Source: Candidatus Magasanikiibacteriota bacterium (lineage in GTDB: Bacteria; Patescibacteriota; Patescibacteriia; Magasanikbacterales; UBA922). From it: DNA of 61,269 bases. Below, piece by piece: positions 5,615 through 53,591 of the stretch. Positions within the stretch are counted from its first letter, which is position 1; every line of letters starts with the position of its first letter. Below the pieces are notes generated by a model. It searched no databases. It was not told where the DNA came from and worked only from the letters and a program-made list of their open reading frames with translations. The translations under genes and the position numbers were made by a program. The stretch covers positions 1 through 61,269 of the forward strand of contig JBPOJQ010000004.1 of the NCBI GenBank assembly GCA_052033375.1, given 5' to 3'.

Positions 5615-5747
5615 ATATACAAATAAGAATAGACCTAGTGTATCTTGAAATAAGAAAGGTGGCAATACAGTACTATTTACACTTAACGGACTGTATAGTA
5701 CACTCTTTGAGAAACGCCCTTTCTAGGGCACAAACACGAGGTGATGT

Positions 5748-5948
5748 GTGAGCCTTTTTACAAGACCGGACGGTACAACAGTGCGCCTTGAAATCAGGGG
5801 CGGCATCGGCCAGGTGTGGATCTACAACAAAGATGGTAAATGCATCAGGCGTCCAATCAGCGACATAGTCGCTCATGCACAACGCCAGGCAACCGACCAG
5901 GAGTCACCGACGGAGGGAGGCCCTGCCGAAAGAGCACCAGACGAGTGA
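5748..5948 (+). CDS. Small GC-rich ORFan (66 aa)
   Basis: GTG start after SD-like gaggtga; upstream tttaca-17-tacact (5676-5704); followed by hairpins. Confidence 0.6.
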   Translation: MSLFTRPDGTTVRLEIRGGIGQVWIYNKDGKCIRRPISDIVAHAQRQATDQESPTEGGPAERAPDE

Positions 5949-5960
5949 TTATTCTTCGCG

Positions 5961-6053
5961 GGGTATGCGGCGGCTGTTTTCAAACACCACCTGCGTACCC
6001 TTTATTACTCCAAAATATTTTGAGGTAGTAAAGGGAGGACACAGGTGGTGTTT
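5961..6053. terminator. Overlapping hairpins between convergent genes (bidirectional terminator-like)
   Basis: gggtatgcgg..ctgcgtaccc (5961-6000); aaacaccacctg (5982-5993) pairs with caggtggtgttt (6042-6053). Confidence 0.55.
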
Positions 6054-6060
6054 TGTATTA

Positions 6061-8736
6061 CTATTTTTTCCGGTTCATTATCGCTTTCAACATTTCGACA
6101 AACAACAAATTCAACAACCCAAATCCACACAACGCCATCCATTCGACAGCACCCAATGGAACTGTATGCAACAAACGCTGGAATATTGGCAGATAGGTCG
6201 CACAGAGTAACATGCCCCATCCGAATAGTACTGCAAGTGTCAAATAATGGTTATCAAACCAGCGCATGTGTAAAAGTGATTTTCTCAGATTTCTAATTGG
6301 GTAGATATAAAACAATGCATCCACTGCAAACGCCAGGAACATGATTGTTCGAACACGCGCAATATCATCAGTTGTCCGCTCAAAATAAAAAAACATACCG
6401 CCGAGCAAAATATTTGCAAAAATTGTTTTTGCAATAATTATAAACCTCATCTCACGATCAATAATTGGCGCATTCCGTTTGCGCGGAGGTTCTTCCATAT
6501 TCTGTTTGTCTCCACGATCAAATGCAAGTGCAATGACAGGAAATGAATCCTGAATTAAATTAACCCACAAAATTTGTACAGGTAACACGGGCAGGGGCAT
6601 ACCTGCAATAATACTGGCGCTAATTAACAATACCTCAGAAAAACTACTTGAGAGGAGATACAACACGACTTTTTTTATATTTTGATAGATTCCACGACCC
6701 TCCTCAACCGAAGCTACAATAGTAGTAAAAGAATTATTCAATAAAATCACATCCGCAATTTCTTTTGCCACATCAGTACCAGATCCTACCGCAACCCCGA
6801 TATCTGCTCCTTTGAGTGCAGGTGCATCATTCACCCCGTCCCCAGTCATAGCAACCACCTGCCCTCGAGCCTGTAGTGCAGCAATGACTCTCATCTTGTG
6901 CTTCGGCTCGACACGCGCAAATACTGACGTCTTTTTGAGTCTTTCATCAAGTTCTCGATCAGAAAGTCGATCGAGTTCCACCCCTTCACACACACTCTCA
7001 GTAGCCATTCCTATCCCCGCACTACGCGCAATTGCACGTGCAGTAATGGCATGATCCCCTGTCATCATAATTACCCTGATTCCTGCACGGAGTGCCGCAC
7101 GGACTGTTTCAGGAACATCCGCACGAAGCGGATCAGCAAGTACGATAAGTCCCACAAATATCATATCGCACAAATCATGTTCTCCTATCAACTTTTTACC
7201 CGCGTGAGTTTCTCTATATGCAACACCGATCACTCGCAACCCCTCTTCGGTGTACTCACGCTCTTTTTGTCTCACAAACGATTCTATTTTTTTATTCCAC
7301 ACATGCACTCCCCCTTCTGCACGATATGCACGTATACGGGGATATATTTTTTCAAGCGCGCCTTTCATAATTATGATTCGAGACGTGGTATCAGTCACCA
7401 GTACTGCCATATATTTCTGATCACTGCCAAAAGGTATATCCGACAGACGTTCATACACGTGGTCTAGTTCGGTCTTGTATAGACCAATATGTCCCCCATA
7501 TCTCAATAATGCTGAATCAGTAAGATTCCCAGAAATTCTCCATTCATTTTCTGGTTTTGTATAATTCTCAAGGACACCATCGTTGCATAATACCCCCAAT
7601 TCAATCAGGTATTTCGCATCATGCTCAAGTGAATTTTCATCTATTTTTTCTCCCACAAAATTCCGAGCATCAAATGCCGCACGCGCAGTCGACATATACA
7701 CCACAGACATATTCCCTTCGGTCAATGTTCCTGTCTTATCCGTACAAATTACTGAAACAGAACCGAGTGTTTCTGCTGCAAGTAATTTTCGAACAAGTGC
7801 ATTTCTTTTGAGTATATGTTTCATGCCAATCGCAAGAATTATTGTCATTGAGATGGCAAGTCCTTCTGGAATAGCTGCCACAGCTACAGCCACAGCAGTT
7901 TTGAACAATTCAATTCCTTTTTCAGTATGTTCTGATTGAGAAAATAAGCCAAGTAAGAGAATACTCGCGCACATACCCACCACCGTCACACCTAATATTT
8001 TCCCTAATTTTGAAATTTGTTTTTGCAATGGAGTTGTGTCTTCACCGATAGTTCCGACCATTTCTGCTATTTTTCCAATCTCTGTCGCACCCCCAATCGC
8101 AGTGACGAGAACTTTTGCTCGCCCCCTGGTCATGACTGTGCCACGATATACCATATTTATCCTATCAGCGACCGAGATATTTCTTTTCATCAAAGCATCG
8201 GTTGTCTTTTTCTGCGGCTCCACTTCACCGGTCAGTACAGATTCATTGACCTCGCACTCAGATACGTGAATTACACGCCCATCTGCTTGAATTTTGTCAC
8301 CAGCGCGAATAAGCATAATATCGCCCACCACTACCTCCTGGCTTGGTACACGGACAGAGGTGCCATTTCGAATTACTTCTGCACTATAGGTCACCATGTT
8401 TTTTAATTTCTTCAATGCTGCATTTGCTTGGTATTCCTGTACAAATCCCACCAACACATTCACAGCAACCGTAATACTAATTACGACCACATCAATGAAT
8501 TCAGATAATAAAAAACTGATTATCGATGCAACAATCAAAATCATAATCAACGGACTCGTAAATTGTTCACCTAAAATTCTCCATGCAGTGACATCCCGAC
8601 TCTTGGCAGGAATTTCATTCGGACCATATTGATTCAATTGATTCAGAGCCTCTGCAGACGAGATACCCCTTTCAGTACTCTTTAATATTTCAAGTGAATG
8701 TGGGATACTACGTATATGAAAATCTTCGTTTTTCAT
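6061..8736 (-). CDS. Cation-transporting P-type ATPase (P2, Ca2+-type)
   Basis: DKTGTLT phosphorylation motif, LTGE, AIPEGL, KGA, MTGDH, MTGDGVNDAPAL; about 10 TM segments. Confidence 0.95.
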   Translation of the reverse strand: MKNEDFHIRSIPHSLEILKSTERGISSAEALNQLNQYGPNEIPAKSRDVTAWRILGEQFTSPLIMILIVASIISFLLSEFIDVVVISITVAVNVLVGFVQEYQANAALKKLKNMVTYSAEVIRNGTSVRVPSQEVVVGDIMLIRAGDKIQADGRVIHVSECEVNESVLTGEVEPQKKTTDALMKRNISVADRINMVYRGTVMTRGRAKVLVTAIGGATEIGKIAEMVGTIGEDTTPLQKQISKLGKILGVTVVGMCASILLLGLFSQSEHTEKGIELFKTAVAVAVAAIPEGLAISMTIILAIGMKHILKRNALVRKLLAAETLGSVSVICTDKTGTLTEGNMSVVYMSTARAAFDARNFVGEKIDENSLEHDAKYLIELGVLCNDGVLENYTKPENEWRISGNLTDSALLRYGGHIGLYKTELDHVYERLSDIPFGSDQKYMAVLVTDTTSRIIIMKGALEKIYPRIRAYRAEGGVHVWNKKIESFVRQKEREYTEEGLRVIGVAYRETHAGKKLIGEHDLCDMIFVGLIVLADPLRADVPETVRAALRAGIRVIMMTGDHAITARAIARSAGIGMATESVCEGVELDRLSDRELDERLKKTSVFARVEPKHKMRVIAALQARGQVVAMTGDGVNDAPALKGADIGVAVGSGTDVAKEIADVILLNNSFTTIVASVEEGRGIYQNIKKVVLYLLSSSFSEVLLISASIIAGMPLPVLPVQILWVNLIQDSFPVIALAFDRGDKQNMEEPPRKRNAPIIDREMRFIIIAKTIFANILLGGMFFYFERTTDDIARVRTIMFLAFAVDALFYIYPIRNLRKSLLHMRWFDNHYLTLAVLFGWGMLLCATYLPIFQRLLHTVPLGAVEWMALCGFGLLNLLFVEMLKAIMNRKK

Positions 8737-8881
8737 GGAAAAAAGTTTACTTGACTTTTCTATTCATCTAGTATATCATATTCGCGTCTCTAGTAGTTCT
8801 TAGTTCATGACAAGAAAGCCAATAGTAAGAGAGTTTGTATTTCTTATGAACTTTCTTCCTATTTGCTATGAACTAATTTAT

Positions 8882-8957: not shown

Positions 8958-8960
8958 AAC

Positions 8961-8990
8961 ATAAAACTCTGAAATTACTCAGAGTTTTAT
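8961..8990 (+). terminator. Terminator after tRNA-Lys
   Basis: ataaaactctga-aattac-tcagagttttat. Confidence 0.7.
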
Positions 8991-9045
8991 TGTGTCTAAT
9001 TGATACTAGGTACACATATCGTCACGTGGTACGGCGCGACATCAC

Positions 9046-9120
9046 GACATAACCCATGTTCCCTCCCAACCTGTAGATACTCACACACAGTATAATATGC
9101 ACAGGTTGGGGGGTTATGTC
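9046..9120. terminator. Long imperfect inverted repeat 3' of the SnoaL-like gene
   Basis: gacataacc..cccaacctgt pairs with acaggttggg..ggttatgtc. Confidence 0.55.
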
Positions 9121-9139
9121 AGTATACCCCCCTTGAGAC

Positions 9140-9556
9140 TCAGCTGATGCGCGGGGTAATCACTCCACGAACCTGTGACTGCCGATCATCCACTTCTTCA
9201 ATCTTCGTACTCTGAATCAGACCGCCTTCGAAGGTGAACGTGATCATCCGGTGAGCCGGAGGACGTCCACCGCCCACCCCCTCGAAGTAGACGAGTATTG
9301 CAGTGTCTGATTCGCACGGGATGTACTGATCCATTTCGTATCTGAGATCCTGGTCGTCTCCGAAGATCGATCGCCACCACCAGGACAGCGGAATCCTCCC
9401 ATAGATCGTGCCGTGCGTCTTCGGATGCCTGCGTTTGATGTCTGGAGAGAAGTGCGTGGGTTTCTCGACGTAGAGCTCGAGGAGACGATCCGTATCATGT
9501 AGATTGAAGCACCTCAGCCACTCGTGGACGAGCATGTATCTTGTATCGCGAACCAT
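9140..9556 (-). CDS. SnoaL/NTF2-like fold protein (138 aa), GC-rich
   Basis: W..CFN.HD.DRLLELY....HFSP....HP.THG.I.G...L..WW...F pattern typical of SnoaL-like proteins; SD-like gagaggg before ATG 9556. Confidence 0.7.
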   Translation of the reverse strand: MVRDTRYMLVHEWLRCFNLHDTDRLLELYVEKPTHFSPDIKRRHPKTHGTIYGRIPLSWWWRSIFGDDQDLRYEMDQYIPCESDTAILVYFEGVGGGRPPAHRMITFTFEGGLIQSTKIEEVDDRQSQVRGVITPRIS

Positions 9557-9623
9557 TGTTTTGAACCCTCTCTTTTTCGATGTAGCTAATTCTGCGTCAC
9601 ATGTCGCAGAATCAACGTGACAT

Positions 9624-9652
9624 ATTTTACGTGTAAAAAAAAATTTTGTAAA
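9624..9652 (-). promoter_or_regulatory. sigma70-like promoter of the SnoaL-like gene
   Basis: TTTACA-17 nt-TAAAAT on the minus strand. Confidence 0.6.
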
Positions 9653-9693
9653 CAAAAACTCCATACCACTATTATGGTATGGAGTAAATTGTC

Positions 9694-9765
9694 TCCGACG
9701 CTGTGGGCGATCGACATGTCAGAGACATGGTTCGCTCGCAGCGTCGGAATCTACCCCCGGGGTAG
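9694..9765. other. Two hairpins 3' of ORFan 9777-10109
   Basis: tccgacgctgtgggcga..gacatgtc-aga-gacatg..tcgctcgcagcgtcgga (55 nt) and ctaccc-ccg-gggtag. Confidence 0.6.
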
Positions 9766-9776
9766 GATGGGCTGGA

Positions 9777-10109
9777 TCATCCCTGTAGGTAGCGAGAAAT
9801 CTGCACTTCCAGCTCACCCCATCCAGGACAGATATACCCGCCACCGTGTCCGCCCACCTTGACACTCACACGGGTAGGCCCGTGCAAATGCTCAGGTCTC
9901 CTCATATCGGTGGGCATTCTGACCTCCCACCCTTCGATGTACACACCCCAGAAGAGACTATGCGCCTCTCGAACTCTCTTCACCTTGTCGGCCCAGATCT
10001 CGACCTCGGTACCATCTTTCAGCCGGATTCTGACAGCGCTATTGGGCGCTGTACACCGGAGATGTTTGTGGCCTTCGAAATAGGCATATCCATCTGAAGG
10101 AAACTTCAT
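9777..10109 (-). CDS. GC-rich ORFan (110 aa)
   Basis: ATG 10109 after a gagggggg SD-like run; TTGACA at 10197-10202 with CATTAT 17 nt downstream. Confidence 0.6.
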   Translation of the reverse strand: MKFPSDGYAYFEGHKHLRCTAPNSAVRIRLKDGTEVEIWADKVKRVREAHSLFWGVYIEGWEVRMPTDMRRPEHLHGPTRVSVKVGGHGGGYICPGWGELEVQISRYLQG

Positions 10110-10263
10110 ACCCCCCTCTTGTTCAAAGCGAACACCCATGTCGTATGGGTAACCGATCCGCTCAAAACAATATATAATGGCATTTTTTTCTTTATTTGTC
10201 AAGTATCTCGCATAACCAGTGCTACTTATTGAACAGCCAGCATATCCCTACCTATACTCTCTA

Positions 10264-13614: not shown

Positions 13615-14172
13615 TTATTTAATAATTTTAATACTTTCTACATATGCACCGGCATATTCCTCTCCAAGCAATGTTATGCCGACAACAAATGAATTGTTTG
13701 TAAAAAAATAGTTGAAATATTCTCCTTCCCCCTCTACTGGTATTTTTACCATCTCTACATCTCCCACCCTGCTTTTTTCTCGCTTATCATACAAAAGAAA
13801 AAAATTCTTAGCATGCTCATCAGCTAGCCATGCATCCAAAGAAAGATCATCTTTGTTTTCAAAAATACGTATTCCCCCTACAATTGGTACGTCTGATTCT
13901 GAACTTTGAAATAATACTCTCTCACCCTCTGTTTTCAGACTCACGCCATGAGGGACAACCATCTCATAGTGTGCACGGTCATCTCTCAAAATTCTTTTTC
14001 CTTCTTTTTCGATAACATTCACCCCGCTCGGGAGAGATACTTCCGAAACACGAGAAATGGTATCTTCTTGCGGAATACGTACCTTCTCGAGACTCACAAA
14101 ATACGCTATTACACTAAACGAAAAAACAAAAAACAATCCAAACATAAATCCGATTGCTGTTCCCCTCCCCAT
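13615..14172 (-). CDS. Hypothetical protein with N-terminal TM anchor
   Basis: 185-aa ORF co-oriented with its neighbours; hydrophobic N-terminus. Confidence 0.7.
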   Translation of the reverse strand: MGRGTAIGFMFGLFFVFSFSVIAYFVSLEKVRIPQEDTISRVSEVSLPSGVNVIEKEGKRILRDDRAHYEMVVPHGVSLKTEGERVLFQSSESDVPIVGGIRIFENKDDLSLDAWLADEHAKNFFLLYDKREKSRVGDVEMVKIPVEGEGEYFNYFFTNNSFVVGITLLGEEYAGAYVESIKIIK

Positions 14173-14731: not shown

Positions 14732-17197
14732 TTATTTTCTAATGTCTGCTTTGAATTTTTCTGTAAGCATTGTTTCAACCACATGATGAGCGGCATCAAT
14801 CTCTGAAGCTTCCAGTGTCTTATCTCTCGACTGATAGGTAATCCGGTATGCCATACTCTTTTTCCCTTCGCCTACCTTTTTCCCTTCAAACACATCAAAC
14901 AATGTTACTGCGGTGATAAGTGGATGAGCTACAGTGAGTGCTGCATCTATATCTCGATGGAACACTGACGTTGGCACCACACACGCGACATCACGAACAA
15001 CAGCGGGATACACCGACAGTGAGCGATAATCCACATGCGGTGCGGAATATTCAGACAACACTCGTATATTTAATTCCGCATATGCGACCCGATCGACAAA
15101 TCCATACTCCTGTGCAATTTTCGGATGTAATTCATATACGTCACCCACATATTCACCTGATAGGGTTACCACTCTTGCGATTCGTCCTGGATGCTGTAAT
15201 GCCCCTGATCCAACTGTAGGCTCCAATGCTAGTGCAACTCCGAGCGACATTCCGACTTCTCGTACCGCTTCAGATACTACGAAGAATGGTGTGTGTTCAC
15301 CTTTTTTGAGATAGGCAATCCCAAGCATCACATCTTGTCGTGGTAATAAATCACTTCCACTCCCAGATACGCGCGGGCCAGCCTCCTCTTTCAGATAAAT
15401 TTTTCCAATCTCATATACCTTTATTTCATCATGCGTATGGGAATTACGTTCCACCAATTCTAATATATTCGGCAATAAACTCCGACGAAGATATGGACGA
15501 TCGCTTGCAATTGGATTATTGAGTTCAATATGAGCGGAAACATCCAATCGTAATAATTCAATCACTCGAGGTGAGATAAATGAATAATTGAGCGTCTCTG
15601 AAAATCCAAGTGTTGCGGAAAGTGTCGTGCGGATAGCTCTTTCTGCTATTTTCGTTTCATTCCGCTCTGGTGGCGTAATTGCAAATACAGGTAATTTCGT
15701 CTCCACATTTCCATAACCATACATCCGAGCTATTTCTTCGATAATGTCTTCAGGAATCGCAATATCTTTCGTCCCCCTCCAACTCGGTACTGTCACAGTA
15801 AGTGTTTCGTGTTCTTTTTTCCCCTGAATAGTGACGCCAAAACCAAGATTTTCTAAAATCCGCACACATTCTTTCGTCGGGATACTTGCTCCGATTTTAT
15901 TATCAATAAATTCTTTGGTGATACGTATCGGCCCAGTAAAGGTAGCGGGTTTTCCTTTTTCCGCAACAGTACTTACCACACGTGCACCTGGACATACTTC
16001 GAAAACTAATTCAATCGCTCGAGCCAGTGCAGGTAGACAATTGGTAGGATCCAGACTTTTCTCAAATCGAGCAGACGAATCCGTACGCAGCCCGAGTGCG
16101 GTCGTAGTTTTCCGTATTAATGTGGGATCGAAATGTGCTGCTTCAAAAATAATTGACGTGGTAGTTTCGGTTATTTCAGTTTCTTTCCCCCCCATAATTC
16201 CCGCGAGTGCAAGCGGTTTTTCACTATCCGCAATAACGAGCATATCTTCTGTCAGCCTTCGTTGTTTTCCATCAATTGTCACCAATTCTTCTCCTGGGCG
16301 TGCCCTTCTCACTGAAATTTCAACTTTTGATTTTTGATTTTTGATTTTTGCGCTGTCGAATGCGTGCATGGGTTGTCCCAAATCACACATTACAAAATTG
16401 GTAATATCAACAATATTATTAATTGGGCGAATTCCTATCGCACGAAGACGTGCTTGCATTTTTTCAGGAGACGGTCCGATGACAACACCCTCAAGTGCGA
16501 CTGCACTATATTTCATCGAGTCAGATACATTTTCAATAGTCACTTTTATTTTCTTTTCATTACCTTCCTTTATTTGGGCAACTGAATATGGTGCGCATTT
16601 CTTTCTATATTTTGCAGCAATTTCTCTTGCTATACCATAATGCCCCCATAGATCTGGCCTATGATTGACCGATTTATTATCAATTTCAATTACTACATCA
16701 TTTAATTCCAATGCCTCAGCAAGCGGAGTACCCGGTTTTGCTTTTATTTTTGACAAATCTGCAATTTCTTTTTCTTCTTTTTTTGGAAACATCTCCGCGA
16801 GACCTACTTCATCAGCACCGCAAATCATTCCATATGAATCCACGCCCCGAATTTTCGTTTGTTTTAATTCTACGAGCTCTCCTTCGCCATGCCATTTGAC
16901 ACGAGCACCAATTTTTCCAAGTATCACCTTCATTCCTTCGCGCACGTTTGACCCCCCGCATACAATCTGAATAATTTCAGTTCCTGCATCCACGTCACAA
17001 ATTTTGAGTGAATCAGCATTTTCATGTTTTCGAACTTTCTGTATGACACCCACTACTATATTTTCAAATGCATGGGACTGATGATGTATACCCTCCACTT
17101 CAACCGTAGACATGGTCAACGCTAAACCAAGTTCTTCAGGAGACAGAGAATCGGGAAGATCTACATATTGTTTGAGCCACTTATACGAAAGTAACAT
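14732..17197 (-). CDS. pheT: Phenylalanine--tRNA ligase beta subunit
   Basis: MLLSYKWL, tRNA-binding domain, NRPDLWGHYGIARE-like motif, GIRPINNIVDITN, GQPMHAFD, FDX-ACB C-terminus. Confidence 0.97.
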   Translation of the reverse strand: MLLSYKWLKQYVDLPDSLSPEELGLALTMSTVEVEGIHHQSHAFENIVVGVIQKVRKHENADSLKICDVDAGTEIIQIVCGGSNVREGMKVILGKIGARVKWHGEGELVELKQTKIRGVDSYGMICGADEVGLAEMFPKKEEKEIADLSKIKAKPGTPLAEALELNDVVIEIDNKSVNHRPDLWGHYGIAREIAAKYRKKCAPYSVAQIKEGNEKKIKVTIENVSDSMKYSAVALEGVVIGPSPEKMQARLRAIGIRPINNIVDITNFVMCDLGQPMHAFDSAKIKNQKSKVEISVRRARPGEELVTIDGKQRRLTEDMLVIADSEKPLALAGIMGGKETEITETTTSIIFEAAHFDPTLIRKTTTALGLRTDSSARFEKSLDPTNCLPALARAIELVFEVCPGARVVSTVAEKGKPATFTGPIRITKEFIDNKIGASIPTKECVRILENLGFGVTIQGKKEHETLTVTVPSWRGTKDIAIPEDIIEEIARMYGYGNVETKLPVFAITPPERNETKIAERAIRTTLSATLGFSETLNYSFISPRVIELLRLDVSAHIELNNPIASDRPYLRRSLLPNILELVERNSHTHDEIKVYEIGKIYLKEEAGPRVSGSGSDLLPRQDVMLGIAYLKKGEHTPFFVVSEAVREVGMSLGVALALEPTVGSGALQHPGRIARVVTLSGEYVGDVYELHPKIAQEYGFVDRVAYAELNIRVLSEYSAPHVDYRSLSVYPAVVRDVACVVPTSVFHRDIDAALTVAHPLITAVTLFDVFEGKKVGEGKKSMAYRITYQSRDKTLEASEIDAAHHVVETMLTEKFKADIRK
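16324..16350. repeat. Heptamer microsatellite (TTTTTGA)n inside pheT
   Basis: cttttga tttttga tttttga tttttg, encoding AKIKNQKSK. Confidence 0.85.
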
Positions 17198-20247: not shown

Positions 20248-20248
20248 A

Positions 20249-32623: not shown

Positions 32624-33964
32624 ATGGTCGTGAAAACAAAAATAATCTTCACCTGTTCCAAGTGCGATGCACAATACCAGAAGTGGATTGGAAGATGTCT
32701 CGAATGTGGTTCATGGGGCACCGTCACGGAAACAGCTGAACGAATCCCAGAAAATAATACGACGGTTTCCACTTCTCAGCCCGCATCAATTCACACACTC
32801 TCAAGTGTTGATTCAACTACCACTAAACGGACACAAACTACGATTTCGGAACTTGATCGTGTGCTCGGCGGCGGAATTGTCCCTGGTAGTTTTATGCTCC
32901 TTGGCGGAGAGCCTGGTATTGGCAAATCCACACTAGCGCTCCAGCTCGCAGCTACAATCCCCTCTTCTCTCTATATCTCTGCAGAAGAATCGGTAAGTCA
33001 GGTAAAAATGCGGGCTGACCGATTGAATATTACCTCGACCACACTTTCCCTCGCGAATGAAACCGCGGTCGAAAAAATTATTTCAACTATACAAACTCAC
33101 AAACCTACGCTTGCGATTATTGATTCTATCCAGACTATTTCAAGCGAACAGGTGCAAGGTGAAGCTGGATCAGTGTCTCAGGTACGCGCGTGCGCCACAT
33201 TACTTCTTGAGGTAGCAAAACAATCCGGAATTCCGATTGTGATTATTGGACACGTGACGAAAGAAGGTAGTGTCGCAGGACCAAAAACACTTGAACATCT
33301 GGTCGATACAGTACTTTATCTTGAAGGAGATCAGTATCACACGTATCGAATTTTACGAGCAGTAAAAAATAGATTTGGCGCGACTGATGAAGTAGGTATT
33401 TTTGAAATGGAAGGAGTAGGTCTTATCTCGGTTGCAAATCCTTCGGCGTCCTTGCTTCGTGAGCGCGGAGAAGATATGCCTGGGAATGTGGTGACATGTA
33501 TCATGGAGGGTACTCGCCCACTCTTGGTCGAAGTACAAGCACTCGTTCATAAAACGACGTTTGGCTATCCGGTGCGCAAAGCAAGTGGATTTGATTTGAA
33601 CCGTCTACACCTACTCACTGCAGTACTTGAGAAACGTGCAGGGCTTACGCTTGCACAGTATGACATTCACCTGAATATTGTGGGTGGAATAAAAATTCAA
33701 GAACCTGCAGCTGACCTCGCAGTGTGCCTTGCAATTGCAAGCTCATACAAAGATAAGTCACTTGGTCGCGACACGATTGTGTTTGGTGAAGTAGGATTGG
33801 GCGGAGAAGTGAGATCCGTACGACACAATGAAAAACGAATAAAAGAATCAATTGATCTCGGTATGAAGCGCATCATTGTTCCTGCAGGGAAAAAAATTAC
33901 TGAACAGCCTGGTGTGAATATGATTGAAGTAAAGAATATTGAAGAGCTTATTAAGAAGACGTGA
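32624..33964 (+). CDS. radA: DNA repair protein RadA/Sms
   Basis: CSKC..KWIGRCLECGSWGT zinc finger, GGEPGIGKST, KNRFG, GEVGLGGEVR. Confidence 0.97.
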   Translation: MVVKTKIIFTCSKCDAQYQKWIGRCLECGSWGTVTETAERIPENNTTVSTSQPASIHTLSSVDSTTTKRTQTTISELDRVLGGGIVPGSFMLLGGEPGIGKSTLALQLAATIPSSLYISAEESVSQVKMRADRLNITSTTLSLANETAVEKIISTIQTHKPTLAIIDSIQTISSEQVQGEAGSVSQVRACATLLLEVAKQSGIPIVIIGHVTKEGSVAGPKTLEHLVDTVLYLEGDQYHTYRILRAVKNRFGATDEVGIFEMEGVGLISVANPSASLLRERGEDMPGNVVTCIMEGTRPLLVEVQALVHKTTFGYPVRKASGFDLNRLHLLTAVLEKRAGLTLAQYDIHLNIVGGIKIQEPAADLAVCLAIASSYKDKSLGRDTIVFGEVGLGGEVRSVRHNEKRIKESIDLGMKRIIVPAGKKITEQPGVNMIEVKNIEELIKKT

Positions 33965-33968: not shown

Positions 33969-34498
33969 ACGCGTCCCTCCCCTTTTAGGGGAGGGACGCG
34001 TGAGGTCTGCCGAAGCTTCGACTTTACTCTATACTAAAATTTAACAAGGAGGGATTATGCCGTATGTTTATACAAACAAACGTTCTTTAATTAATAGAAG
34101 AAAACTGTTACGTAGAAGACAGACCAAAGCAGAACAAATTCTATGGAAAGAATTACGTGGTAGAAAATCTGGAGTCGTATTTAGAAGACAATATGGCATC
34201 GGATCATATATTACTGATTTTTATTGTCATGAATTTAGATTAGTGATCGAGCTTGATGGACCAATTCATGACGAACAAAAAGAATATGACCGACGACGAG
34301 AAAATTTTCTAAAAAAGCAAGGATTCACAATACTACGATTTAAAAATGATGAAGTGTTATTTGAAAGAGAAAGTGTAATAGAGAAAATAAAAAGTGCTTG
34401 TAATATTTCTCCTCAGTAAACTACGCAAATATTATTATACTCACTTATAATAATATCCTTCGAACGACCTCACCCTTCCCTCTCCTGAGAGGAGAGGG
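33969..34498. mobile_element. DUF559 gene flanked by inverted REP-like hairpins
   Basis: 33975-34007 versus reverse complement of 34466-34498: 27/33 identical, with a compensatory C-G/T-A stem pair. Confidence 0.7.
34057..34419 (+). CDS. DUF559 family (Vsr-like) endonuclease
   Basis: LRRRQTKAEQILWKELR..FRRQYGIGSYITDFYC..LVIELDGPIH..YDRRRENFL..GFTILRFKNDEV; SD aaggagg. Confidence 0.92.
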   Translation: MPYVYTNKRSLINRRKLLRRRQTKAEQILWKELRGRKSGVVFRRQYGIGSYITDFYCHEFRLVIELDGPIHDEQKEYDRRRENFLKKQGFTILRFKNDEVLFERESVIEKIKSACNISPQ

Positions 34499-34505
34499 TT
34501 TAATT

Positions 34506-34631
34506 CAATACAAACAAAAATCCACACTCGCCCTCCCGCGATGACTCCCATATATGAGATTCATTGCGTGATTCGAGTGTGGATTTTGTATTCGAGACGC
34601 GAGCGGTCGCCGAAGCGATCCGCCCGCTCTC
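34506..34631. other. Two hairpins 3' of ORFan 34638-35054
   Basis: aaaatccacactcg (34517-30) pairs with cgagtgtggatttt (34574-87), with an inner stem; the second hairpin 34594-34631 has a cUUCGg loop on the minus strand. Confidence 0.65.
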
Positions 34632-34637
34632 TTCCCA

Positions 34638-35054
34638 TCAGTGGAAGTGCATCGGACGCCGGCTGCTGGGCTGGATCACCGAGACCTTCGGCTCACCCTG
34701 CTCGAGCTCCTCCTGCCAGAGGAGGAGCTTCTCGTGCGAGATGCCGAGGTTCTCCATGAGGAACCTCGAGACCCGCGGGTGCGTACGGAAGCTCCGGTAG
34801 ATGGTGCGCGAGATGTCATCGACCTTGGACTGCCGACCCACCTTGAGACCTCCGATGTCGAAAGTACCCCTGAACGAATCGTACAGGCCCTTCGACGCCA
34901 CCTGTTCATGGCCGATCACCCTGACGAGGCTACTGCAGATCTCGGGCGAGAGATGCTGGCTCGAGCCGGGAGGTCCTCCGACGAGACGGACCGCAGGACC
35001 ATGGGTCCCGAGGAAGGTCCCCGTGATCGCACACGTTCGACTGACTGACTTCAT
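34638..35054 (-). CDS. GC-rich ORFan (138 aa)
   Basis: ATG 35054 after aagggg; consensus promoter upstream; 39/60 G+C at 34681-34740. Confidence 0.65.
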   Translation of the reverse strand: MKSVSRTCAITGTFLGTHGPAVRLVGGPPGSSQHLSPEICSSLVRVIGHEQVASKGLYDSFRGTFDIGGLKVGRQSKVDDISRTIYRSFRTHPRVSRFLMENLGISHEKLLLWQEELEQGEPKVSVIQPSSRRPMHFH

Positions 35055-35140
35055 TGGTATACCCCTTGATGTTGTGCTTTTATGTGACGGCGTGACGGCC
35101 GAATCCACCCCAAAGCACGGAAAGAGTAGACATAGGTGCG

Positions 35141-35169
35141 AGTATAAACAAAAAATCCCAATCTGTCAA
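35141..35169 (-). promoter_or_regulatory. Near-consensus sigma70 promoter
   Basis: TTGACA-17 nt-TATACT. Confidence 0.75.
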
Positions 35170-35190
35170 TGCAAACTGGGGAAAAACATG

Positions 35191-35291
35191 AAATCCAAAA
35201 CTAAAAACTCAAATATCAAAACTTCAGCTTAAATCTCGAATTTTGACTTTTTAGTTGGAGCTTTGAGTTTTGAACTTTAAATTTTGAGTTT
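35191..35291. repeat. Inverted array of degenerate heptamers directly after the recG stop
   Basis: A-rich arm aaatccaaaactaaaaactcaaatatcaaaa and T-rich arm ttttgactttttagttggagctttgagttttgaactttaaattttgagttt. Confidence 0.65.
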
Positions 35292-37406
35292 CTACTCCAT
35301 ATGCACCCGAGCTTCCCACTCTTGTACCCGCTCTTTGAGCTCTGGAAACTTCTCAAAATCCATACCTCGAGCTGATTCCCTCGCAGCCCTGATAATATCC
35401 TGATCACGCATGGTCGCGAGCCGGAGTTCTTCCATTCCACTCTGCGCCGTACCATATACTTCTCCCGGGCCTCTAGTTTCAAGATCATATTCTGCAAGCA
35501 CAAATCCATCAAGTGTTTTCGCAAAGTACTCTAATCGACCTTTTGATACTACATTCTCAACCTCGGTAAACAAAATACAATACGACTGATACTCCGCTCG
35601 CCCTACTCTCCCACGGAATTGGTGCAGCTGAGCTAACCCAAATCTCTCAGCTCCCTCAATCATCATAATTGATGCATTGGGAATATTTACTCCAACTTCA
35701 ATTACTGAGGTTGAGACTAATATGTCAGTTTCTCCTGCAGCAAATTTTTTCATGATTCCTTCTTTTTCTTTTGATTTCATTTTTCCATGCAAATACCCAA
35801 CTCGGAGATCTGGAAATATTTTCGTTGACAACTTTTCGTATTCAGACAATACAGTTTTCTTTTCTGATACCAGACTTACATTTTCGCCTTCTTTTGTTTT
35901 CTGTTCTATCAACGGACACACGACAAATACTTGTCGTCCTTTTTCTACTTGCTCTCTAATAAATCCATAGGCCTTTTCTCTCTTATTCGGTTCAACGAGT
36001 CTCGTAATAATATCTTTTCTCCCCGCTGGTTTTGTCTTGATATACGATACATCGAGATCACCATACAAGGTCAGTGCGTACGAGCGTGGAATTGGTGTTG
36101 CAGTCATGGATAAAAAATGCGGATACATTCCTTCCATACCAGACTTATCACGAATTGTTTTTCTTTGTTCCACCCCAAATCGATGTTGCTCGTCGATCAC
36201 CACCAGCCCTAATTGGTGAAACTGTGTATCCTCAGTCAATAATGCGTGAGTACCGATAACTAAATCAATTAATCCCTCATTAATCTGTTTTTTTACTTCT
36301 TGTTTCTCTAATTTTCTCGATTTACTTTCGGCTTCATGCACTTTCGACTTTCGACTTTCGACTTGAGAACCTGTGAGAAGTCCAATACTTATCTTATCAC
36401 CAAATAGTTTTATTAGAGTCTCATAGTGCTGCGTCGCCAAAATTTCTGTCGGCGCCATAATGACTGATTGATATCCATTCAAAAAACTCAAATACGCAGA
36501 CAATCCAGCAACAATTGTTTTTCCAGACCCCACGTCTCCTTGCAATAGACGATTCATCGGTGAACCCTGCCCAATATCTTGGAAAATTTCCCATGCTGAT
36601 TTCTTCTGATCTACCGTTAATTCAAATGGTAGTGATTGTACAAACTCACGAATTTCTTTTTCCTTGAATCCAATATGTGGTGCGTGTTGTCTTGCACTCG
36701 ACTGTCGAATCAATTCTGCTCGAAGTTGCAATATGAACAATTCACCAAACTTAAGACGGCGCTCAGCGCACACTCTTTCTTCATGATTTTCTGGAAAATG
36801 AATTTTTTGTATTGCTTCAGATAACGTTATTAGTTTATTTTCTACAAGAATACTGTGCGGAATCCATTCTGTAATTTGCTCTGCAAGCGGAAGTACTTGC
36901 TCTACAAGAAACCTCATTTGTTTTTGTGTAACTCCTGATGTAAGCGGATACATAGGTACAATACGCGCGGTGTGTGTCGCCTGTTTGTCTTCTCGTACAC
37001 GTTCATACGCAGGACTAGTCATATGTGTCCCAAATACATCTTCTTTTATGGCACCCGACAGATACACCTCGTCCCCCACTTTCAATATTTTTGCAATAAA
37101 CGGCTGCCCAAACCAAATCACCCGGATCACGTCAGTCTCGTCCCGAACTACCGCTTCAGTAATCATTGTGCGTTTGCGAGGACTTCGTTTATTTGCGATT
37201 AATTCAATCGTGCCTTTAATCGTCAGATCTACCCCTGGCATAACATTCGCAATCGGTACGACTGATCGATAATCTTCGTATCGAAAAGGAAAATGAAATA
37301 ATATATCTTGTGCTCTAATTATCCCAAGAACATTCAATTTCTTTTCAAGATTTTTTCCTACACGATGGAGTTCGGATACTGGAGTTGTGAGGCGAAGCGC
37401 GGACAT
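35292..37406 (-). CDS. recG: ATP-dependent DNA helicase RecG
   Basis: DILFHFPFRYED, LQGDVGSGKT, IDEQHRFG, MTATPIPR, LAQLHQFRGRVGR. Confidence 0.97.
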   Translation of the reverse strand: MSALRLTTPVSELHRVGKNLEKKLNVLGIIRAQDILFHFPFRYEDYRSVVPIANVMPGVDLTIKGTIELIANKRSPRKRTMITEAVVRDETDVIRVIWFGQPFIAKILKVGDEVYLSGAIKEDVFGTHMTSPAYERVREDKQATHTARIVPMYPLTSGVTQKQMRFLVEQVLPLAEQITEWIPHSILVENKLITLSEAIQKIHFPENHEERVCAERRLKFGELFILQLRAELIRQSSARQHAPHIGFKEKEIREFVQSLPFELTVDQKKSAWEIFQDIGQGSPMNRLLQGDVGSGKTIVAGLSAYLSFLNGYQSVIMAPTEILATQHYETLIKLFGDKISIGLLTGSQVESRKSKVHEAESKSRKLEKQEVKKQINEGLIDLVIGTHALLTEDTQFHQLGLVVIDEQHRFGVEQRKTIRDKSGMEGMYPHFLSMTATPIPRSYALTLYGDLDVSYIKTKPAGRKDIITRLVEPNKREKAYGFIREQVEKGRQVFVVCPLIEQKTKEGENVSLVSEKKTVLSEYEKLSTKIFPDLRVGYLHGKMKSKEKEGIMKKFAAGETDILVSTSVIEVGVNIPNASIMMIEGAERFGLAQLHQFRGRVGRAEYQSYCILFTEVENVVSKGRLEYFAKTLDGFVLAEYDLETRGPGEVYGTAQSGMEELRLATMRDQDIIRAARESARGMDFEKFPELKERVQEWEARVHME
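36341..36366. repeat. Heptamer microsatellite (CTTTCGA)3 inside recG
   Basis: ctttcga ctttcga ctttcga cttga, encoding QVESRKSKV. Confidence 0.85.
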
Positions 37407-38602: not shown

Positions 38603-38634
38603 ATCTTAACGTGTGTATGTTCTCGGGTCAATTG

Positions 38635-38706
38635 TGCCTCCAGCGGGAATCGAACCCACATCACCGGCTCCGGAGGCCAGTGCTCTATCCATTAAGCTAT
38701 GGAGGC
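38635..38706 (-). tRNA. tRNA-Arg(CCG), no encoded CCA
   Basis: GCCTCCA..TGGAGGC acceptor; CTGGC-CTCCGGA-GCCGG anticodon arm; GTGGGTTCGATTCCCGC. Confidence 0.95.
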
Positions 38707-38779: not shown

Positions 38780-39241
38780 TTAGTCATGACTGAGCAGTTC
38801 TTCAAGAAAAATCACGTTCCCGCGAATTTCATGCGCCTGCTCTTCGTCGATCAATCCACTTCCATTGCCAGTTGTATAGTACTGGTGCAGTCGGATGAAG
38901 AACTGGAGTCTCCACCTGAGGTATTCTGCTCTGAGCACTGAAGGCACTTCTCCAACTTCGACCTCAAGTGACTTTCTACAGCTATTATCCAAATTGCAGT
39001 ACGTGAGAGCTTCTCTCAGCTCATGGCGCGCTATGATTTCCCTATACTCTTGCGGAATATCCTCCGAAAGATACAGGAATCTTGGGTAGCGCACAAAACC
39101 GGCAATATTCGCTACATCTGGCTGGAATTCCCTCCTCAGTACTGTGTAAAAAAACTTTCTACCACGATAGTTGACCCTTTCTCTACCCAGTACAAAATCT
39201 TTTGCCCAGGTTGGAACACCTGTAAAATTCTTGAATCTCAT
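38780..39241 (-). CDS. ORFan (153 aa) with an HELRE (HExxE) zincin-like motif
   Basis: ATG 39241 after gaggggg; YLSEDIPQEYREIIARHELRE; followed by a hairpin near 38746-38776. Confidence 0.65.
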   Translation of the reverse strand: MRFKNFTGVPTWAKDFVLGRERVNYRGRKFFYTVLRREFQPDVANIAGFVRYPRFLYLSEDIPQEYREIIARHELREALTYCNLDNSCRKSLEVEVGEVPSVLRAEYLRWRLQFFIRLHQYYTTGNGSGLIDEEQAHEIRGNVIFLEELLSHD

Positions 39242-49134: not shown

Positions 49135-49266
49135 CGGTGGGCACACAAACAGCCCCGCACGATTCATCGTGACGGGGCTTGACTTTTTTTAGTGCGCACA
49201 TAGTACGCACATATAGCTCATTTAATTTCTTGTGTTAATACACGCCATTACAACACCATTCAAATG

Positions 49267-50766: not shown

Positions 50767-50926
50767 ATAATTCAATGTATCACCGACGTCCTCTTTTGGC
50801 AAGAATTAGAGAAATATTATGTTTCAAAATCTGCTTATTTTTGATAAAAATTCACCAAAATTACGATAATTTTTATTGTACAAAAAACCAAGCGCCCTAC
50901 ACGCTGGTTGTAATATATGGAAATAT

Positions 50927-51790: not shown

Positions 51791-51800
51791 ATAGAAAAAA

Positions 51801-52565
51801 TTATTGATGACGTTCTAAAATTTCTCTCGCAAGCTTTTCATATGCTTTTGCACCCTTGCCACTGGGTTCGTATTGCAAAATCGATTGGCCAAAACTGGGC
51901 GCTTCGGCCAAGCGTACCGTACGAGGAATTACTGAACGAAAGATATTATTTGGGAAATATTTATATAACTCAGTCATTACTTCGGTTGATAATTTCGTCC
52001 TCTTATCAAACATGGTCAAAACCGCACCCAACACTTCTAAATCAGGATGGATATGCGTCTGTACTAATTTTACTGTTTCCAATAATTGTCCCAATCCTTC
52101 AAGTGCATAATATTCTGCCTGCACAGGTATCAATAGCTGATCTGCCGCAACCAGACTATTCACTGTAAGTAATCCAAGTGAAGGGGGGCAATCAATAAAA
52201 ATATAATCGTATCCATGTCTAATTTCACTCAACAATTCTCGCAATTGAAATTCTCGATTATCAACAGATACCAATTCGACTGACGCGCCAGCTAGATTCT
52301 GGGTAGCCGGTGCAATACGCAATCCGACATGACCTGTATCGCAGACCACATCTGAAATATTTTTCTGTTTTGCTAATGCCTCATAAATTCCATGCACCAC
52401 CTCGCTTCGGTTGACCCCAAGTCCACTTGTTGCATTACCCTGAGGATCCATATCGACAATCAGAACCATTTTTCCGAGCTCGGCCAAAAAAGCCGCCACA
52501 TTGACTGTGGTCGTAGTCTTTCCCACCCCTCCCTTTTGATTAACAACTGAAATGACTTTTGCCAT
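51801..52565 (-). CDS. parA: ParA/Soj ATPase
   Basis: NQKGGVGKTT, DMDPQGNAT, IDCPPSLG, PVQAEYYALEG, EAPSFG; start reassigned to MAKV. Confidence 0.95.
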   Translation of the reverse strand: MAKVISVVNQKGGVGKTTTTVNVAAFLAELGKMVLIVDMDPQGNATSGLGVNRSEVVHGIYEALAKQKNISDVVCDTGHVGLRIAPATQNLAGASVELVSVDNREFQLRELLSEIRHGYDYIFIDCPPSLGLLTVNSLVAADQLLIPVQAEYYALEGLGQLLETVKLVQTHIHPDLEVLGAVLTMFDKRTKLSTEVMTELYKYFPNNIFRSVIPRTVRLAEAPSFGQSILQYEPSGKGAKAYEKLAREILERHQ

Positions 52566-52649
52566 AGGTATTTTACTGCATACAGTATAGCATATCGTTG
52601 ACAAGTGTACGAGTACAGGCTATACTCATCTTCACAAATAGTACAAAAT

Positions 52650-52733
52650 GCCCAGGTGGTGAAATTGGTAGACACGCGGGACTCAAAATCCCGTGATAGC
52701 GATATCGTGAGAGTTCGATTCTCTCCCTGGGCA
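52650..52733 (+). tRNA. tRNA-Leu(CAA), long variable arm, no encoded CCA
   Basis: GCCCAGG..CCTGGGC acceptor; CGGGA-CTCAAAA-TCCCG anticodon arm; GAGAGTTCGATTCTCTC. Confidence 0.95.
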
Positions 52734-52738
52734 CTATG

Positions 52739-52762
52739 AAGAAGTCTTATATAAGACTTCTT
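52739..52762 (+). terminator. Palindrome after tRNA-Leu
   Basis: aagaagtcttat|ataagacttctt. Confidence 0.65.
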
Positions 52763-52857
52763 TTGATATATATTTCTTGACTTTTTGGCTTTATTACGAT
52801 AGTATCTGTGCCAAACCAACAGCCCCGTCAGAGGCATTGTTCCGGAGGTTCATCACC

Positions 52858-53484
52858 ATGCTCTGCGCTGAAATCTGGATCCCGCGAAGGGGAAACATAC
52901 GCGTCTCCCCACAGATCAAACTCACAACAACCTTCTGCATTCAGATTGGAGGCACCCCTCAACGGAGGGTACCTGGGATATACATCCCTCTGAGTACAAG
53001 AGCACAGCATGTCCACACCACACGTGAATTCATGACGACTACACTACCAGACGGTAGTGAAAAAATCGTCTCTGAATCTCGATACTTGTCTGGAGGTCAA
53101 GTCATTCCCCATCCGGATGGCACAAGACTACTCATCGTAGAACACTCAACTGCCTCTCTGGTTCCCGACCAGATACTCGTCGTAGTCCATCTGGAATCCG
53201 GGTCTGGAGTAGGAAACCAAAGCAGCGCGTTCTTCACGACGCAGTCGACTGCACACATCCTGATCCAGGGCTACAAATACCGCCGACCAGACCCCGCCCG
53301 GTATGCCACACTCGGTACCATTGGCGATGTACTCGCCATCATGCGCCCAGGTGAGCATCTCAACTGGAAACGTTCCGGAACCGGACTGGCACAGACCGAA
53401 GGGAACATGTACTACTACGGACGAACACTGGGTGACACAAACTTCTTTGGACACATTCCACCTGGTGCTACAGAAACCGGATGA
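52858..53484 (+). CDS. GC-enriched ORFan (208 aa)
   Basis: ATG 52858 after ggagg; TTGACT-17-TAGTAT at 52777-52805. Confidence 0.6.
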   Translation: MLCAEIWIPRRGNIRVSPQIKLTTTFCIQIGGTPQRRVPGIYIPLSTRAQHVHTTREFMTTTLPDGSEKIVSESRYLSGGQVIPHPDGTRLLIVEHSTASLVPDQILVVVHLESGSGVGNQSSAFFTTQSTAHILIQGYKYRRPDPARYATLGTIGDVLAIMRPGEHLNWKRSGTGLAQTEGNMYYYGRTLGDTNFFGHIPPGATETG

Positions 53485-53591
53485 CTGTGGTATACACGAG
53501 GTCGTGTGTCACGCGCACATACAGCGCGTGCCACCCGACCTTGTTCACATACGTCATATATTGAACCGGTAGCACGAGGCTATCGGTTTTT
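53482..53591 (+). terminator. Long imperfect hairpin plus intrinsic terminator after the ORFan
   Basis: acgaggtcg..cacgcgc-acataca-gcgcgtg..cgaccttgt; then aaccggtagc-acga-ggctatcggtt plus T run. Confidence 0.6.

Follow-up and report, generated by a model that had tools for sequence, protein, structure and literature searches.

Small GC-rich genes with strong Shine-Dalgarno sites probably form a class of slot-bound accessory genes in Candidatus Magasanikbacteria

The contig JBPOJQ010000004.1 of an ultra-small Candidatus Magasanikiibacteriota bacterium (GenBank assembly GCA_052033375.1) is complete, comprises 61,269 bp with 41.9% GC and was analysed at its full length, which we call the window (W). 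It harbors seven cassettes, each with a small open reading frame (ORF) behind a strong Shine-Dalgarno (SD) site, which were named c1 to c7 in window order. The original prediction, made from the letters of this DNA, had proposed a repeated, modular route of single-gene acquisition, and all seven ORFs were present at the coordinates that it gave. Our analysis leads us to the view that the seven units probably represent a clade-wide class of small accessory genes of Candidatus Magasanikbacteria, with fixed slots and recombining cores. We consider them a native gene class and not recent imports because of their fixed shared positions, their conserved signals and their hypervariable coding part. 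It is unusual that swapping affects the core but leaves the expression frame in its slot, and that the cores are a maintained GC-rich, SD-led class in a genome otherwise without SD sites. The cassettes consist of the following features; promoters are given as -35 box, spacer length and -10 box with their matches to the 12 consensus positions, and GC3 is the GC content at third codon positions.

Positions 5676-6057, plus strand: cassette c1 with a promoter-like site at 5676-5704 (TTTACA-17-TACACT, 9/12) and the SD site GAGGTGA at 5738-5744.
Positions 5748-5948, plus strand: ORF of c1, GTG start, 66 aa.
Positions 5982-6057, plus strand: hairpin of c1, 74 nt, near-perfect, abutting the stop codon of the ATPase gene.
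Positions 9030-9652, minus strand: cassette c2 with the promoter at 9652-9624 (TTTACA-17-TAAAAT, 10/12), the SD site GAGAGGG at about 9563-9572 and a 3' hairpin at about 9030-9132.
Positions 9140-9556, minus strand: ORF of c2, 138 aa, marginally SnoaL_2/NTF2-like.
Positions 9658-10202, minus strand: cassette c3 with the promoter at 10202-10174 (TTGACA-17-CATTAT, 10/12, with TG) and the SD site AGAGGGGGG at about 10113-10122.
Positions 9777-10109, minus strand: ORF of c3, 110 aa.
Positions 9690-9757 (approximate), minus strand: hairpin of the c3 3' module with the base CCGACGC/GCGTCGG, followed by a terminator at 9685-9658.
Positions 34505-35169, minus strand: cassette c4 with the promoter at 35169-35141 (TTGACA-17-TATACT, 11/12), a leader of 86 nt (35055-35140) and the SD site AAGGGGT.
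Positions 34638-35054, minus strand: ORF of c4, 138 aa, GC 0.62, GC3 0.81.
Positions 34505-34637, minus strand: 3' end of c4, a double hairpin with a U-run.
Positions 38780-39310, minus strand: cassette c5 with the SD site AGAGGGGGTG at about 39245-39256, between tRNA-Arg(CCG) (38634-38706) and tRNA-Arg(GCG) (39621-39693).
Positions 38780-39241, minus strand: ORF of c5, 153 aa, GC3 0.47, the mildest outlier.
Positions 48705-49185, plus strand: cassette c6 with the promoter at 48705-48733 (TTGACA-17-TAAACT, 10/12, with TG), the SD site GGAGG at 48772-48776 and a terminator hairpin at about 49150-49185.
Positions 48784-49134, plus strand: ORF of c6, TTG start, 116 aa, His-rich ends around a hydrophobic core.
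Positions 52777-53592, plus strand: cassette c7 with a promoter-like site at 52777-52805 (TTGACT-17-TAGTAT, 9/12) and the SD site GGAGG at 52844-52848, located after tRNA-Leu(CAA) (52650-52734).
Positions 52858-53484, plus strand: ORF of c7, 208 aa, all-beta in the structure model.
Positions 53486-53549 and 53563-53592, plus strand: 3' end of c7, a hairpin and a terminator.

All seven ORFs were compositional outliers. Their GC content was 0.45-0.62 and their GC3 0.47-0.81, compared to 0.408 ± 0.028 and 0.334 ± 0.038 in 40 backbone ORFs, and the z-scores for GC3 ranged from 3.5 (c5) to 12.7 (c4). A 120-nt scan revealed discrete GC islands at 5695-6026, 9065-10118, 34508-35140, 48742-49223, and 52786-53592. 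The sliding scan and the z-scores agreed with the earlier description of several sharply GC-rich ORFs in an AT-rich backbone. A spot count of 39/60 at 34681-34740 given with that description was exact, while the control stretch contained 23/60 and not 22/60. In the called frames of the cassettes GC3 was far above GC1 and GC2. The GC pressure was general: C was used over T in third positions (NNC) at 0.62 in the cassettes versus 0.24 in the backbone, G over A (NNG) at 0.57 versus 0.32, and the amino acid composition was shifted toward His, Trp, Arg, Pro, and Gly. Since G-ending codons, C-ending codons and amino acid composition all shift together, translational codon optimisation was rejected as an explanation for the high GC content.

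The second common trait was the SD site. Its strength was determined as the energy of the duplex with a generic anti-SD sequence and had a mean of -9.9 kcal/mol in the seven cassettes versus -0.6 in 39 backbone genes (Mann-Whitney p = 3e-5). The backbone value was still -4.1 kcal/mol when the best of all in-frame starts was allowed (p = 2e-4). Control genomes that use SD sites gave -4.5 to -6.2, as expected. A G-rich SD-like run had been noted before every ORF, and a strong SD was indeed present in 7/7. In independent gene calls for the relatives, genes with a GC3 of at least 0.5 also had the stronger SD sites (-7.6 vs. -2.1, p = 0.003).

Promoters with 17-nt spacers had been predicted for six cassettes. 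This count was consistent with our -35/-10 scan, in which no promoter passed for c5. The c4 promoter at 35169-35141 was confirmed and c2, c3, and c6 also had near-consensus promoters, while the sites of c1 and c7 were marginal and barely above shuffled expectation. Near-consensus -35/-10 boxes also preceded three tRNA transcription units. Since the tRNA genes carry the same boxes, the cassette promoters are of the organism's own type. The 110-nt 3' flanks of the cassettes had a mean folding energy of -42.7 kcal/mol (z -4.65), while 19 3' ends of backbone genes averaged -21.7 (z -1.9; p = 1e-4). Hairpins had been described after all ORFs; unusually stable ones were found in six of the seven cassettes, the exception being c5, because its flank is a tRNA. 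An all-against-all comparison of cassettes and flanks revealed no shared hairpin family, and each 3' element matched only its positional counterpart in relatives. By the same comparison the seven proteins were mutually unrelated, and likewise their flanks. A search of Rfam at gathering and permissive thresholds returned only tRNAs and chance hairpin matches.

Loci of relatives (named L001, L004, and so on) were recovered via conserved neighbour anchors and via homologs of the cassettes themselves. They stem from independent assemblies of different studies and have a backbone gene order identical to the window. Their concatenated backbone proteins were 81.9-90% identical to those of the window (57-96% for individual genes). 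The best TopA relatives reached up to 91% and those of pyruvate kinase (PK) up to 86% identity, in records that include Candidatus Magasanikbacteria. L004, L005, L006, L008, and L010 are deposited as 'uncultured Gammaproteobacteria'; with TopA about 90% identical to that of Candidatus Magasanikbacteria, they are probably mislabeled. A metagenome scan anchored on the P-type ATPase gave no close relative, with 52% identity at most. The gene for this cation ATPase (6061-8736) is itself accessory though AT-rich, and it is missing between M23 and PK in L156. Since it proved accessory, PK was taken as the anchor.

The flanks of the cassettes include the genes for PK, P-type ATPase, M23 peptidase, RecG, RadA, TopA, RelA, and ParA/ParB. 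Promoters, leaders, SD sites and terminator hairpins were conserved with each slot in relatives. Conservation at the same loci and a composition within the genome-wide distribution had been named beforehand as arguments against an acquisition route. For c1, c2, c4, c5, c6, and c7 we found homologs at the same loci in independent assemblies. The composition was far outside that of the backbone and stayed so in relatives.

The slots varied in their contents across relatives: they held orthologs, non-homologous GC-rich ORFs, extra copies or GIY-YIG genes, or were empty. L155 harbors an ortholog of c1 in the same slot between PK and ATPase (55% aa identity, GC3 0.58, hairpin 89% conserved). In L157 and L158 this slot measures just 69-97 nt. 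The c1/c2 region of L156 and L158 contains other GC-rich genes. Cassette c2 lies between ATPase-tRNA-Lys and M23; its ortholog in L155 (67% identical, GC3 0.61) was the sole relative in a word-based search of 5.8 billion proteins. At the position of the adjoining cassette c3, L155 carries a GC-rich ORF of about 113 aa that is not homologous to c3 and shares its -35 region and 3' module. In the window, L155 and L159, this module consists of the conserved base CCGACGC/GCGTCGG with a variable top, the linker ACAATYTAC, and a terminator. An exhaustive HMMER search of 1.84 billion representatives revealed one relative of the c3 protein, P0137 (42%), which is encoded elsewhere, on the short contig L159, with the same 3' module.

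Orthologs of c4 were found in L001 (61%), in the same slot between RecG and a DUF559 gene, and in L002 and L003 (71%), downstream of RecG on short contigs. All had a GC3 of 0.80-0.81. Promoter and leader (about 90 nt) and the 3' hairpin (about 100 nt; -66 kcal/mol, z -7.5) were nearly invariant in the four genomes. Four-fold degenerate sites of the backbone differed by 34-48% among these genomes, and the c4 proteins were 61-72% identical with indels in frame. The word-based search gave no c4 homologs outside these positional orthologs.

Homologs of c5 were present between the same two tRNAs in L004, L010, and L001 (42-44%) and shifted in L008 (41%). The c6 slot between TopA and RelA harbors homologs in L004, L008, L010, and L026 at 25-36% identity and is empty (82 nt) in L018. 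Promoter and terminator of c6 were conserved in L004, L006, L010, and L026, and this frame encloses different families of small membrane proteins, singly or as two to three ORFs. In the locus L029 an ORF with a GC3 of 0.91 is located in the same slot after TopA. The c7 family was found in L004, L008, L010, and L018 with 27-36% identity and 23 invariant columns, and L008 and L010 have an extra GC-rich ORF in this slot. Between L004 and L010, promoter, leader, SD, and first codons of c7 align at 83% nucleotide identity and the last 45 nt or so of the ORF with the hairpins at 87%, while the core of about 540 nt was unalignable; the breakpoints thus mapped to the ends of the ORF. L005 has GIY-YIG genes in the c5 and c7 slots instead, whose products score 55-60 bits with Pfam:

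L005 positions 2788-3051, minus strand: AT-rich, stand-alone GIY-YIG gene abutting tRNA-Arg(GCG), in the position of c5.
L005 positions 16752-17039, plus strand: AT-rich, stand-alone GIY-YIG gene abutting tRNA-Leu(CAA), in the position of c7.

The cassette cores diverge 3-10 times faster than the backbone. Backbone genes had a synonymous divergence (dS) of 1.4-2.2 and a ratio of nonsynonymous (dN) to synonymous divergence of 0.03-0.10; RecG was left out for the window and L001 because of a coordinate artefact. Cassettes showed a dN of 0.21-0.82 and a dN/dS of 0.35-0.51 where dS was measurable. The dS of c2 was 0.66, versus 1.5-2.2 in its flanks. L004 and L010 were 96.6% identical in their backbone proteins and 33.5% in c7, and L008 and L018 82.6% and 56.7%, respectively. 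At four-fold sites, the c7 core of L004 and L010 differed by 71% versus 36.7% for the backbone (p = 3e-5), and c1 together with c2 of the window and L155 by 36% versus 63% (p = 5e-5). The c7 core appears to be older than its flanks and c1 and c2 appear to be younger, as judged from these sequence comparisons. A core that is older than its flanks would point to replacement by a deeply diverged allele or to local hypermutation, and cores that look younger to recent exchange or synonymous constraint. For c5 the four-fold divergence between L004 and L010 was the same as for the backbone (35% vs. 36.7%, p = 0.88), with 86% aa identity. The cores did not behave as targets of a diversity-generating retroelement: the window contains no repeat of any core, the variation spans the whole core and includes indels, and there was no depletion of A at four-fold sites.

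The high GC content of the cassettes is a locus-specific equilibrium that is actively maintained and not a leftover of foreign origin. Synonymous sites of the backbone are near saturation (48-65% of the four-fold sites differ), so that a neutral sequence would have lost its compositional memory. Three c4 orthologs held a GC content of 0.72-0.82 at four-fold sites though 34-53% of these sites had changed, and exchanges between G and C made up about 45% of the changes versus about 7% in the backbone. The saturated c7 alleles all held a GC3 of 0.53-0.61, and the non-homologous occupants of the slots were likewise GC-rich. Either recombination-linked, GC-biased repair or selection tied to the expression of SD-led mRNAs may be the maintaining force. 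GC-biased gene conversion has been described for bacteria, with higher GC3 in recombining genes independent of codon optimisation (PMC4450053). The general GC pressure and the discordant histories of the cassettes resemble this process, while the effect in the cassettes is far larger and sharply bounded, with no detectable gradient in the flanks.

We propose the following course of events. The slots would be fixed intergenic sites between housekeeping genes, and each would hold a frame consisting of a native sigma-70-type promoter, a leader with a strong SD, and one or two 3' hairpins that end in a terminator. Inside the frame would lie a GC-rich, hypervariable coding core. The frames would descend with the chromosome. 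The cores would diversify, give way to very divergent or even non-homologous alleles, become duplicated or disappear. Most likely DNA would be taken up and this exchange would then occur by homologous recombination in the conserved frames and in the neighbouring genes, and it would involve no integrase or specific recombination site. Three products encoded in the window could serve as machinery for such an exchange:

Positions 43800-44903, plus strand: DprA (Pfam DNA_processg_A, 247 bits).
Positions 32624-33964: RadA (RadA-like).
Positions 35292-37406: RecG.

The closest known model for such dynamics is, by analogy, the integrase-free minimal mobile element of Neisseria (Saunders & Snyder 2002 and Snyder et al. 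2007, as quoted in PMC3787668). In the passages quoted there, it is defined as a variable region between specific conserved flanking genes; these elements are described as having no mobility genes, and their exchange is attributed to homologous recombination in the conserved flanks after natural transformation. The cassettes share with them that six slots vary between identical flanking genes (orthologs, non-homologous ORFs, extra ORFs or emptiness), that mobility genes are absent from the window, that DprA, RadA, and RecG are encoded, and that contents differ between near relatives; transformability is putative here. The cassettes differ in that the exchange mainly concerns the coding core, with promoter, leader, SD and terminator remaining at the slot, that the units are single small genes, and that the cores form a GC-rich, SD-led compositional class in an AT-rich genome largely without SD.

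Several observations weigh against this interpretation. No positional homolog of c3 was found in the loci of the relatives. Recombination at the slots is inferred from distances, branch lengths and synonymous sites and not from topology, since in an approximately unbiased (AU) test the backbone clade of L004 and L010 was not rejected for c7 (p = 0.149). Cores that look older could be mimicked by local hypermutation, and in c1, c2, and c4 constraint on synonymous sites, instead of a recent exchange, could account for the low dS. GC3 did not spill over into the ends of flanking genes (0.350 vs. 0.338, p = 0.38), which argues against simple biased gene conversion, and the GC3 increase of 0.2 to 0.5 is far larger than that reported for bacteria (PMC4450053). 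Some AT-rich accessory genes, namely the g13615 family and the DUF559 gene, are also SD-led. The connection of GC content with SD is therefore not exclusive, and SD may mark an autonomous accessory class rather than high GC content alone. None of the RNA runs that we examined held a cassette; only low-depth DNA contigs did.

A bolder version of the slot model assumes an integrase-free 'frame-and-core' system, in which the conserved frames at fixed slots double as landing pads for recombination, GC-rich cores, among them non-homologous ones, are exchanged across lineages by transformation, and GC-biased repair or selection linked to this exchange maintains a class that is separate in composition and in its SD-dependent translation. 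We put this forward as a tentative idea that is possible but may well not hold.

Strictly vertical descent of fast-evolving orphans, with selection on expression preserving GC-rich codons and SD sites in a separate, SD-dependent translation regime and without any exchange, is rather unlikely. The same slots and conserved frames across relatives, the confinement of SD to the accessory class and the co-divergence of c5 with the backbone in L004 and L010 would all be expected under this assumption. The low dS of c1, c2, and c4 fits synonymous constraint, and the AU test leaves the backbone clade for c7 unrejected. However, the c7 distances rank in the opposite order to those of the backbone, synonymous sites of the c7 core are saturated between flanks diverged by 13%, and the frames of the c3 and c6 slots hold non-homologous ORFs. 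The GC enrichment is general, including amino acids, and is not limited to particular codons, and some SD-led accessory genes are AT-rich.

It has become very improbable that the cassettes were recently and repeatedly captured from GC-rich donors via a site-specific, integron-like route that has escaped recognition and uses the 3' hairpins as recombination sites; this reading is largely refuted for six of the seven cassettes. Parts of the original prediction did hold: the units are modular and self-contained with a foreign-looking composition, the slots show turnover, and no mobile-element gene in the window explains them. The strong compositional contrast, the single ORF per unit with an imperfect 3' hairpin, the presence, absence and replacement among relatives and the location of four of the seven units beside tRNAs would suit such captures. 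Capture itself was not supported, since c1, c2, and c4 to c7 have positional homologs and native, conserved promoters, leaders, and terminators, and no homologs from donors turned up. For c2, c3, and c4 the searches described above revealed no homolog beyond loci in the style of this clade, and the GC content has not decayed though the synonymous sites of the backbone are saturated. Among the 39 long ORFs of the 61-kb contig there was no integrase, transposase or recombinase domain, as had been noted for integrases before.

In likeness to integron cassettes or to clusters of attC sites lacking an integrase (CALIN), the units are single-ORF modules with an imperfect 3' hairpin of tens of nucleotides, and c2 and c3 are adjacent. 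However, integron cassettes are promoterless and transcribed from a common Pc promoter, while c2, c3, c4, and c6 have -35/-10 boxes of their own that match 10-11 of 12 positions and are conserved in relatives. Integron attC sites share R''/R' motifs and a fold; the cassette hairpins share neither an R''/R' consensus nor a sequence family, are specific for their slot and should act as terminators with U-runs. Canonical attC ends had not been seen in the sequence either; there was no shared 3' site and by eye no consistent RYYYAAC...GTTRRRY pair. Integron cassettes are arrayed, while the units are scattered over a 61-kb window without IntI. The integron/CALIN reading was rejected on account of the own promoters, the lack of a hairpin consensus and the lack of IntI in the window.

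Genomic islets and phage morons were also considered. Horizontally acquired islets reportedly ameliorate toward the composition of the host (the Lawrence & Ochman model). Atypical composition, some tRNA adjacency and a patchy distribution are common to islets and cassettes. The cassettes differ in that six of seven occur at the same loci in relatives, their composition does not decay toward that of the host and their promoters are native. A recently acquired islet fails as an explanation because of these six positional homologs (only c3 lacks one) and because GC is kept despite saturated backbone sites. Phage morons (Hendrix/Juhala) are autonomous units of promoter, ORF, and terminator with deviant GC between conserved phage genes. 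The cassettes resemble them in having their own promoter, a single ORF, a terminator and atypical GC between conserved genes. They differ in their backbone of chromosomal housekeeping genes, their lack of a PHROG match, positions that are conserved across species, and the maintained GC content. The moron reading was rejected since the flanks are housekeeping genes and the seven proteins have no PHROG match.

A further alternative is that turnover is driven by nucleases: GIY-YIG and DUF559/Vsr-like genes would cut at or near the slots, repair from taken-up DNA would replace the cores, and a Vsr-type bias from T:G to C:G would enrich GC. The two GIY-YIG genes of L005 occupy the c5 and c7 slots exactly and abut tRNAs, the DUF559 gene with its strong SD lies beside c4, the most GC-rich cassette, and is conserved in L001, and a repair bias would fit the general GC pressure. 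We nevertheless regard this mechanism as very unlikely. There are three cases of adjacency in the sequences, the window has no nuclease beside c1, c2, c3, c6, and c7, small GIY-YIG proteins occur widely and are in many cases not mobile, and a spill-over of GC3 into the flanks was not seen.

That the cassettes are chimeras, contaminant inserts or structured RNA genes with incidental ORFs is hardly credible. In favour of such a reading, the sequence stems from a metagenome-assembled genome, stop codons are rare in GC-rich DNA, which has open frames on both strands (such as 34641-35048 on the plus strand opposite c4), the hairpins of the untranslated regions are better conserved than the ORFs, and the c4 structure model is poor (predicted local distance difference test, pLDDT, 44). 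An assembly artefact is nevertheless rejected because independent assemblies from different studies agree on the same units. In addition, contigs from a wastewater run span the AT/GC junction of c4 with 0 mismatches, c4 indels are in frame, dN/dS is below 1, the saturated c7 alleles retain 23 invariant columns, the c2 protein lies above a Pfam threshold, the called frames have a GC3 far above GC1 and GC2, and no Rfam family matched.

The cassette proteins are real but lineage-restricted. The protein of c2 matches Pfam SnoaL_2 (PF12680) marginally, with 28.4 bits at a cutoff of 27 over profile positions 1-100 of 102, so that a SnoaL/NTF2-like fold is a marginal prediction. Beyond this match, Pfam, NCBIfam, PHROGs, and PADLOC gave nothing for the seven proteins, neither a phage nor a defence family. 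The earlier label of ORFans was too strong, since c2 has this match and every cassette has at least one relative elsewhere. Searches against phage and metagenome proteins, which had been suggested along with that label, gave no PHROG match and no GC-rich donor homologs for c2, c3, and c4. The c6 product is predicted to be a His-rich small membrane protein, and its layout of His-rich ends and hydrophobic core is conserved among its relatives. The all-beta structure model of c7 (predicted template modeling score, pTM, 0.59) had no significant PDB or viral fold match. The fast, allele-swapping evolution may hint at roles in conflict or host interaction, and by analogy the pattern might resemble that of loci under frequency-dependent selection.

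Genomes of the candidate phyla radiation (CPR)/Patescibacteria are small and thought to be streamlined, and little is understood of how their gene content varies. Mini-genes that are rapidly swapped at fixed slots, if confirmed, would be a compact variable accessory repertoire, possibly for host or phage interaction. A crude scan gave 0.8-1.8 GC-rich, SD-led small ORFs per 10 kb in Magasanikbacteria loci, close ones and some distant ones, and none in non-CPR controls. In the published literature we found no description of GC-rich, SD-led genes in CPR. The class offers a test bed for what maintains GC against the AT-biased mutation of bacteria, biased repair or selection, and for the coexistence of SD-dependent and SD-independent initiation in one cell. 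Such compositional outliers are not automatically recent horizontal transfers or contamination of metagenome-assembled genomes.

Target duplications had been reported as absent, and no flanking direct repeats were present at c1, c2/c3, c6, and c7. Near c5, a perfect 17-nt direct repeat of the 3' end of tRNA-Arg(GCG), TGTGCACTCGCGTGGAA, is located at 39414-39430 and 39620-39636, a duplication that would also suit a capture. The repeat brackets a GC-rich insert of about 190 nt with several hairpins and not c5 itself. The insert looks like an integration footprint in the tRNA 3' end or a miniature element; it is missing in L004 and L010, and part of it matches L008 3171-3242. The earlier count of four cassettes beside tRNAs and three elsewhere was correct. 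Bacteria usually decode CGY codons with an ACG (inosine) anticodon. The tRNA-Arg(GCG) gene at 39621-39693 is kept next to tRNA-Arg(CCG) in all relatives.

Next to c4, the DUF559 gene (34057-34419), which encodes a Vsr-like endonuclease fold, has the lowest GC3 of the window (0.165) and yet a strong SD (AAGGAGGG). It is 85% conserved in L001, where it also lies beside this most GC-rich cassette. An AT-rich inverted repeat of about 120 nt (35178-35298) is located between the RecG stop codon and the c4 promoter and is not present at that spot in L001, L002, and L003. A similar copy is located at L005 8521-8616; the repeat is possibly a small mobile inverted-repeat element. The RecG gene of L001 (7736-9853, a contig of the Joint Genome Institute) was called as four to five fragments, which indicates frameshifts, as would arise in a pseudogene or through errors of sequencing.

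The 39 long ORFs of the window encode housekeeping and envelope functions, including PheS/T, ClpC, RadA, RecG, Der, Pth, DprA, TopA, RelA, ParA/B, ScpA/B, AspS, and others. At 13615-14172 an AT-rich gene for 185 aa shows 30-49% identity in relatives versus 77-95% for its neighbour. Its divergence keeps pace with that of the cassettes and its relatives have strong SD sites, so neither rapid evolution nor the use of SD is limited to GC-rich genes. Within the backbone, a stretch of 460 nt at 27431-27891 has a GC content of 0.53 and lies in an unannotated gene for 417 aa (27156-28409). GGAGG-rich repeats occur within 1909-3570, inside a large gene for an LVIVD/fn3 surface protein (2-4054).

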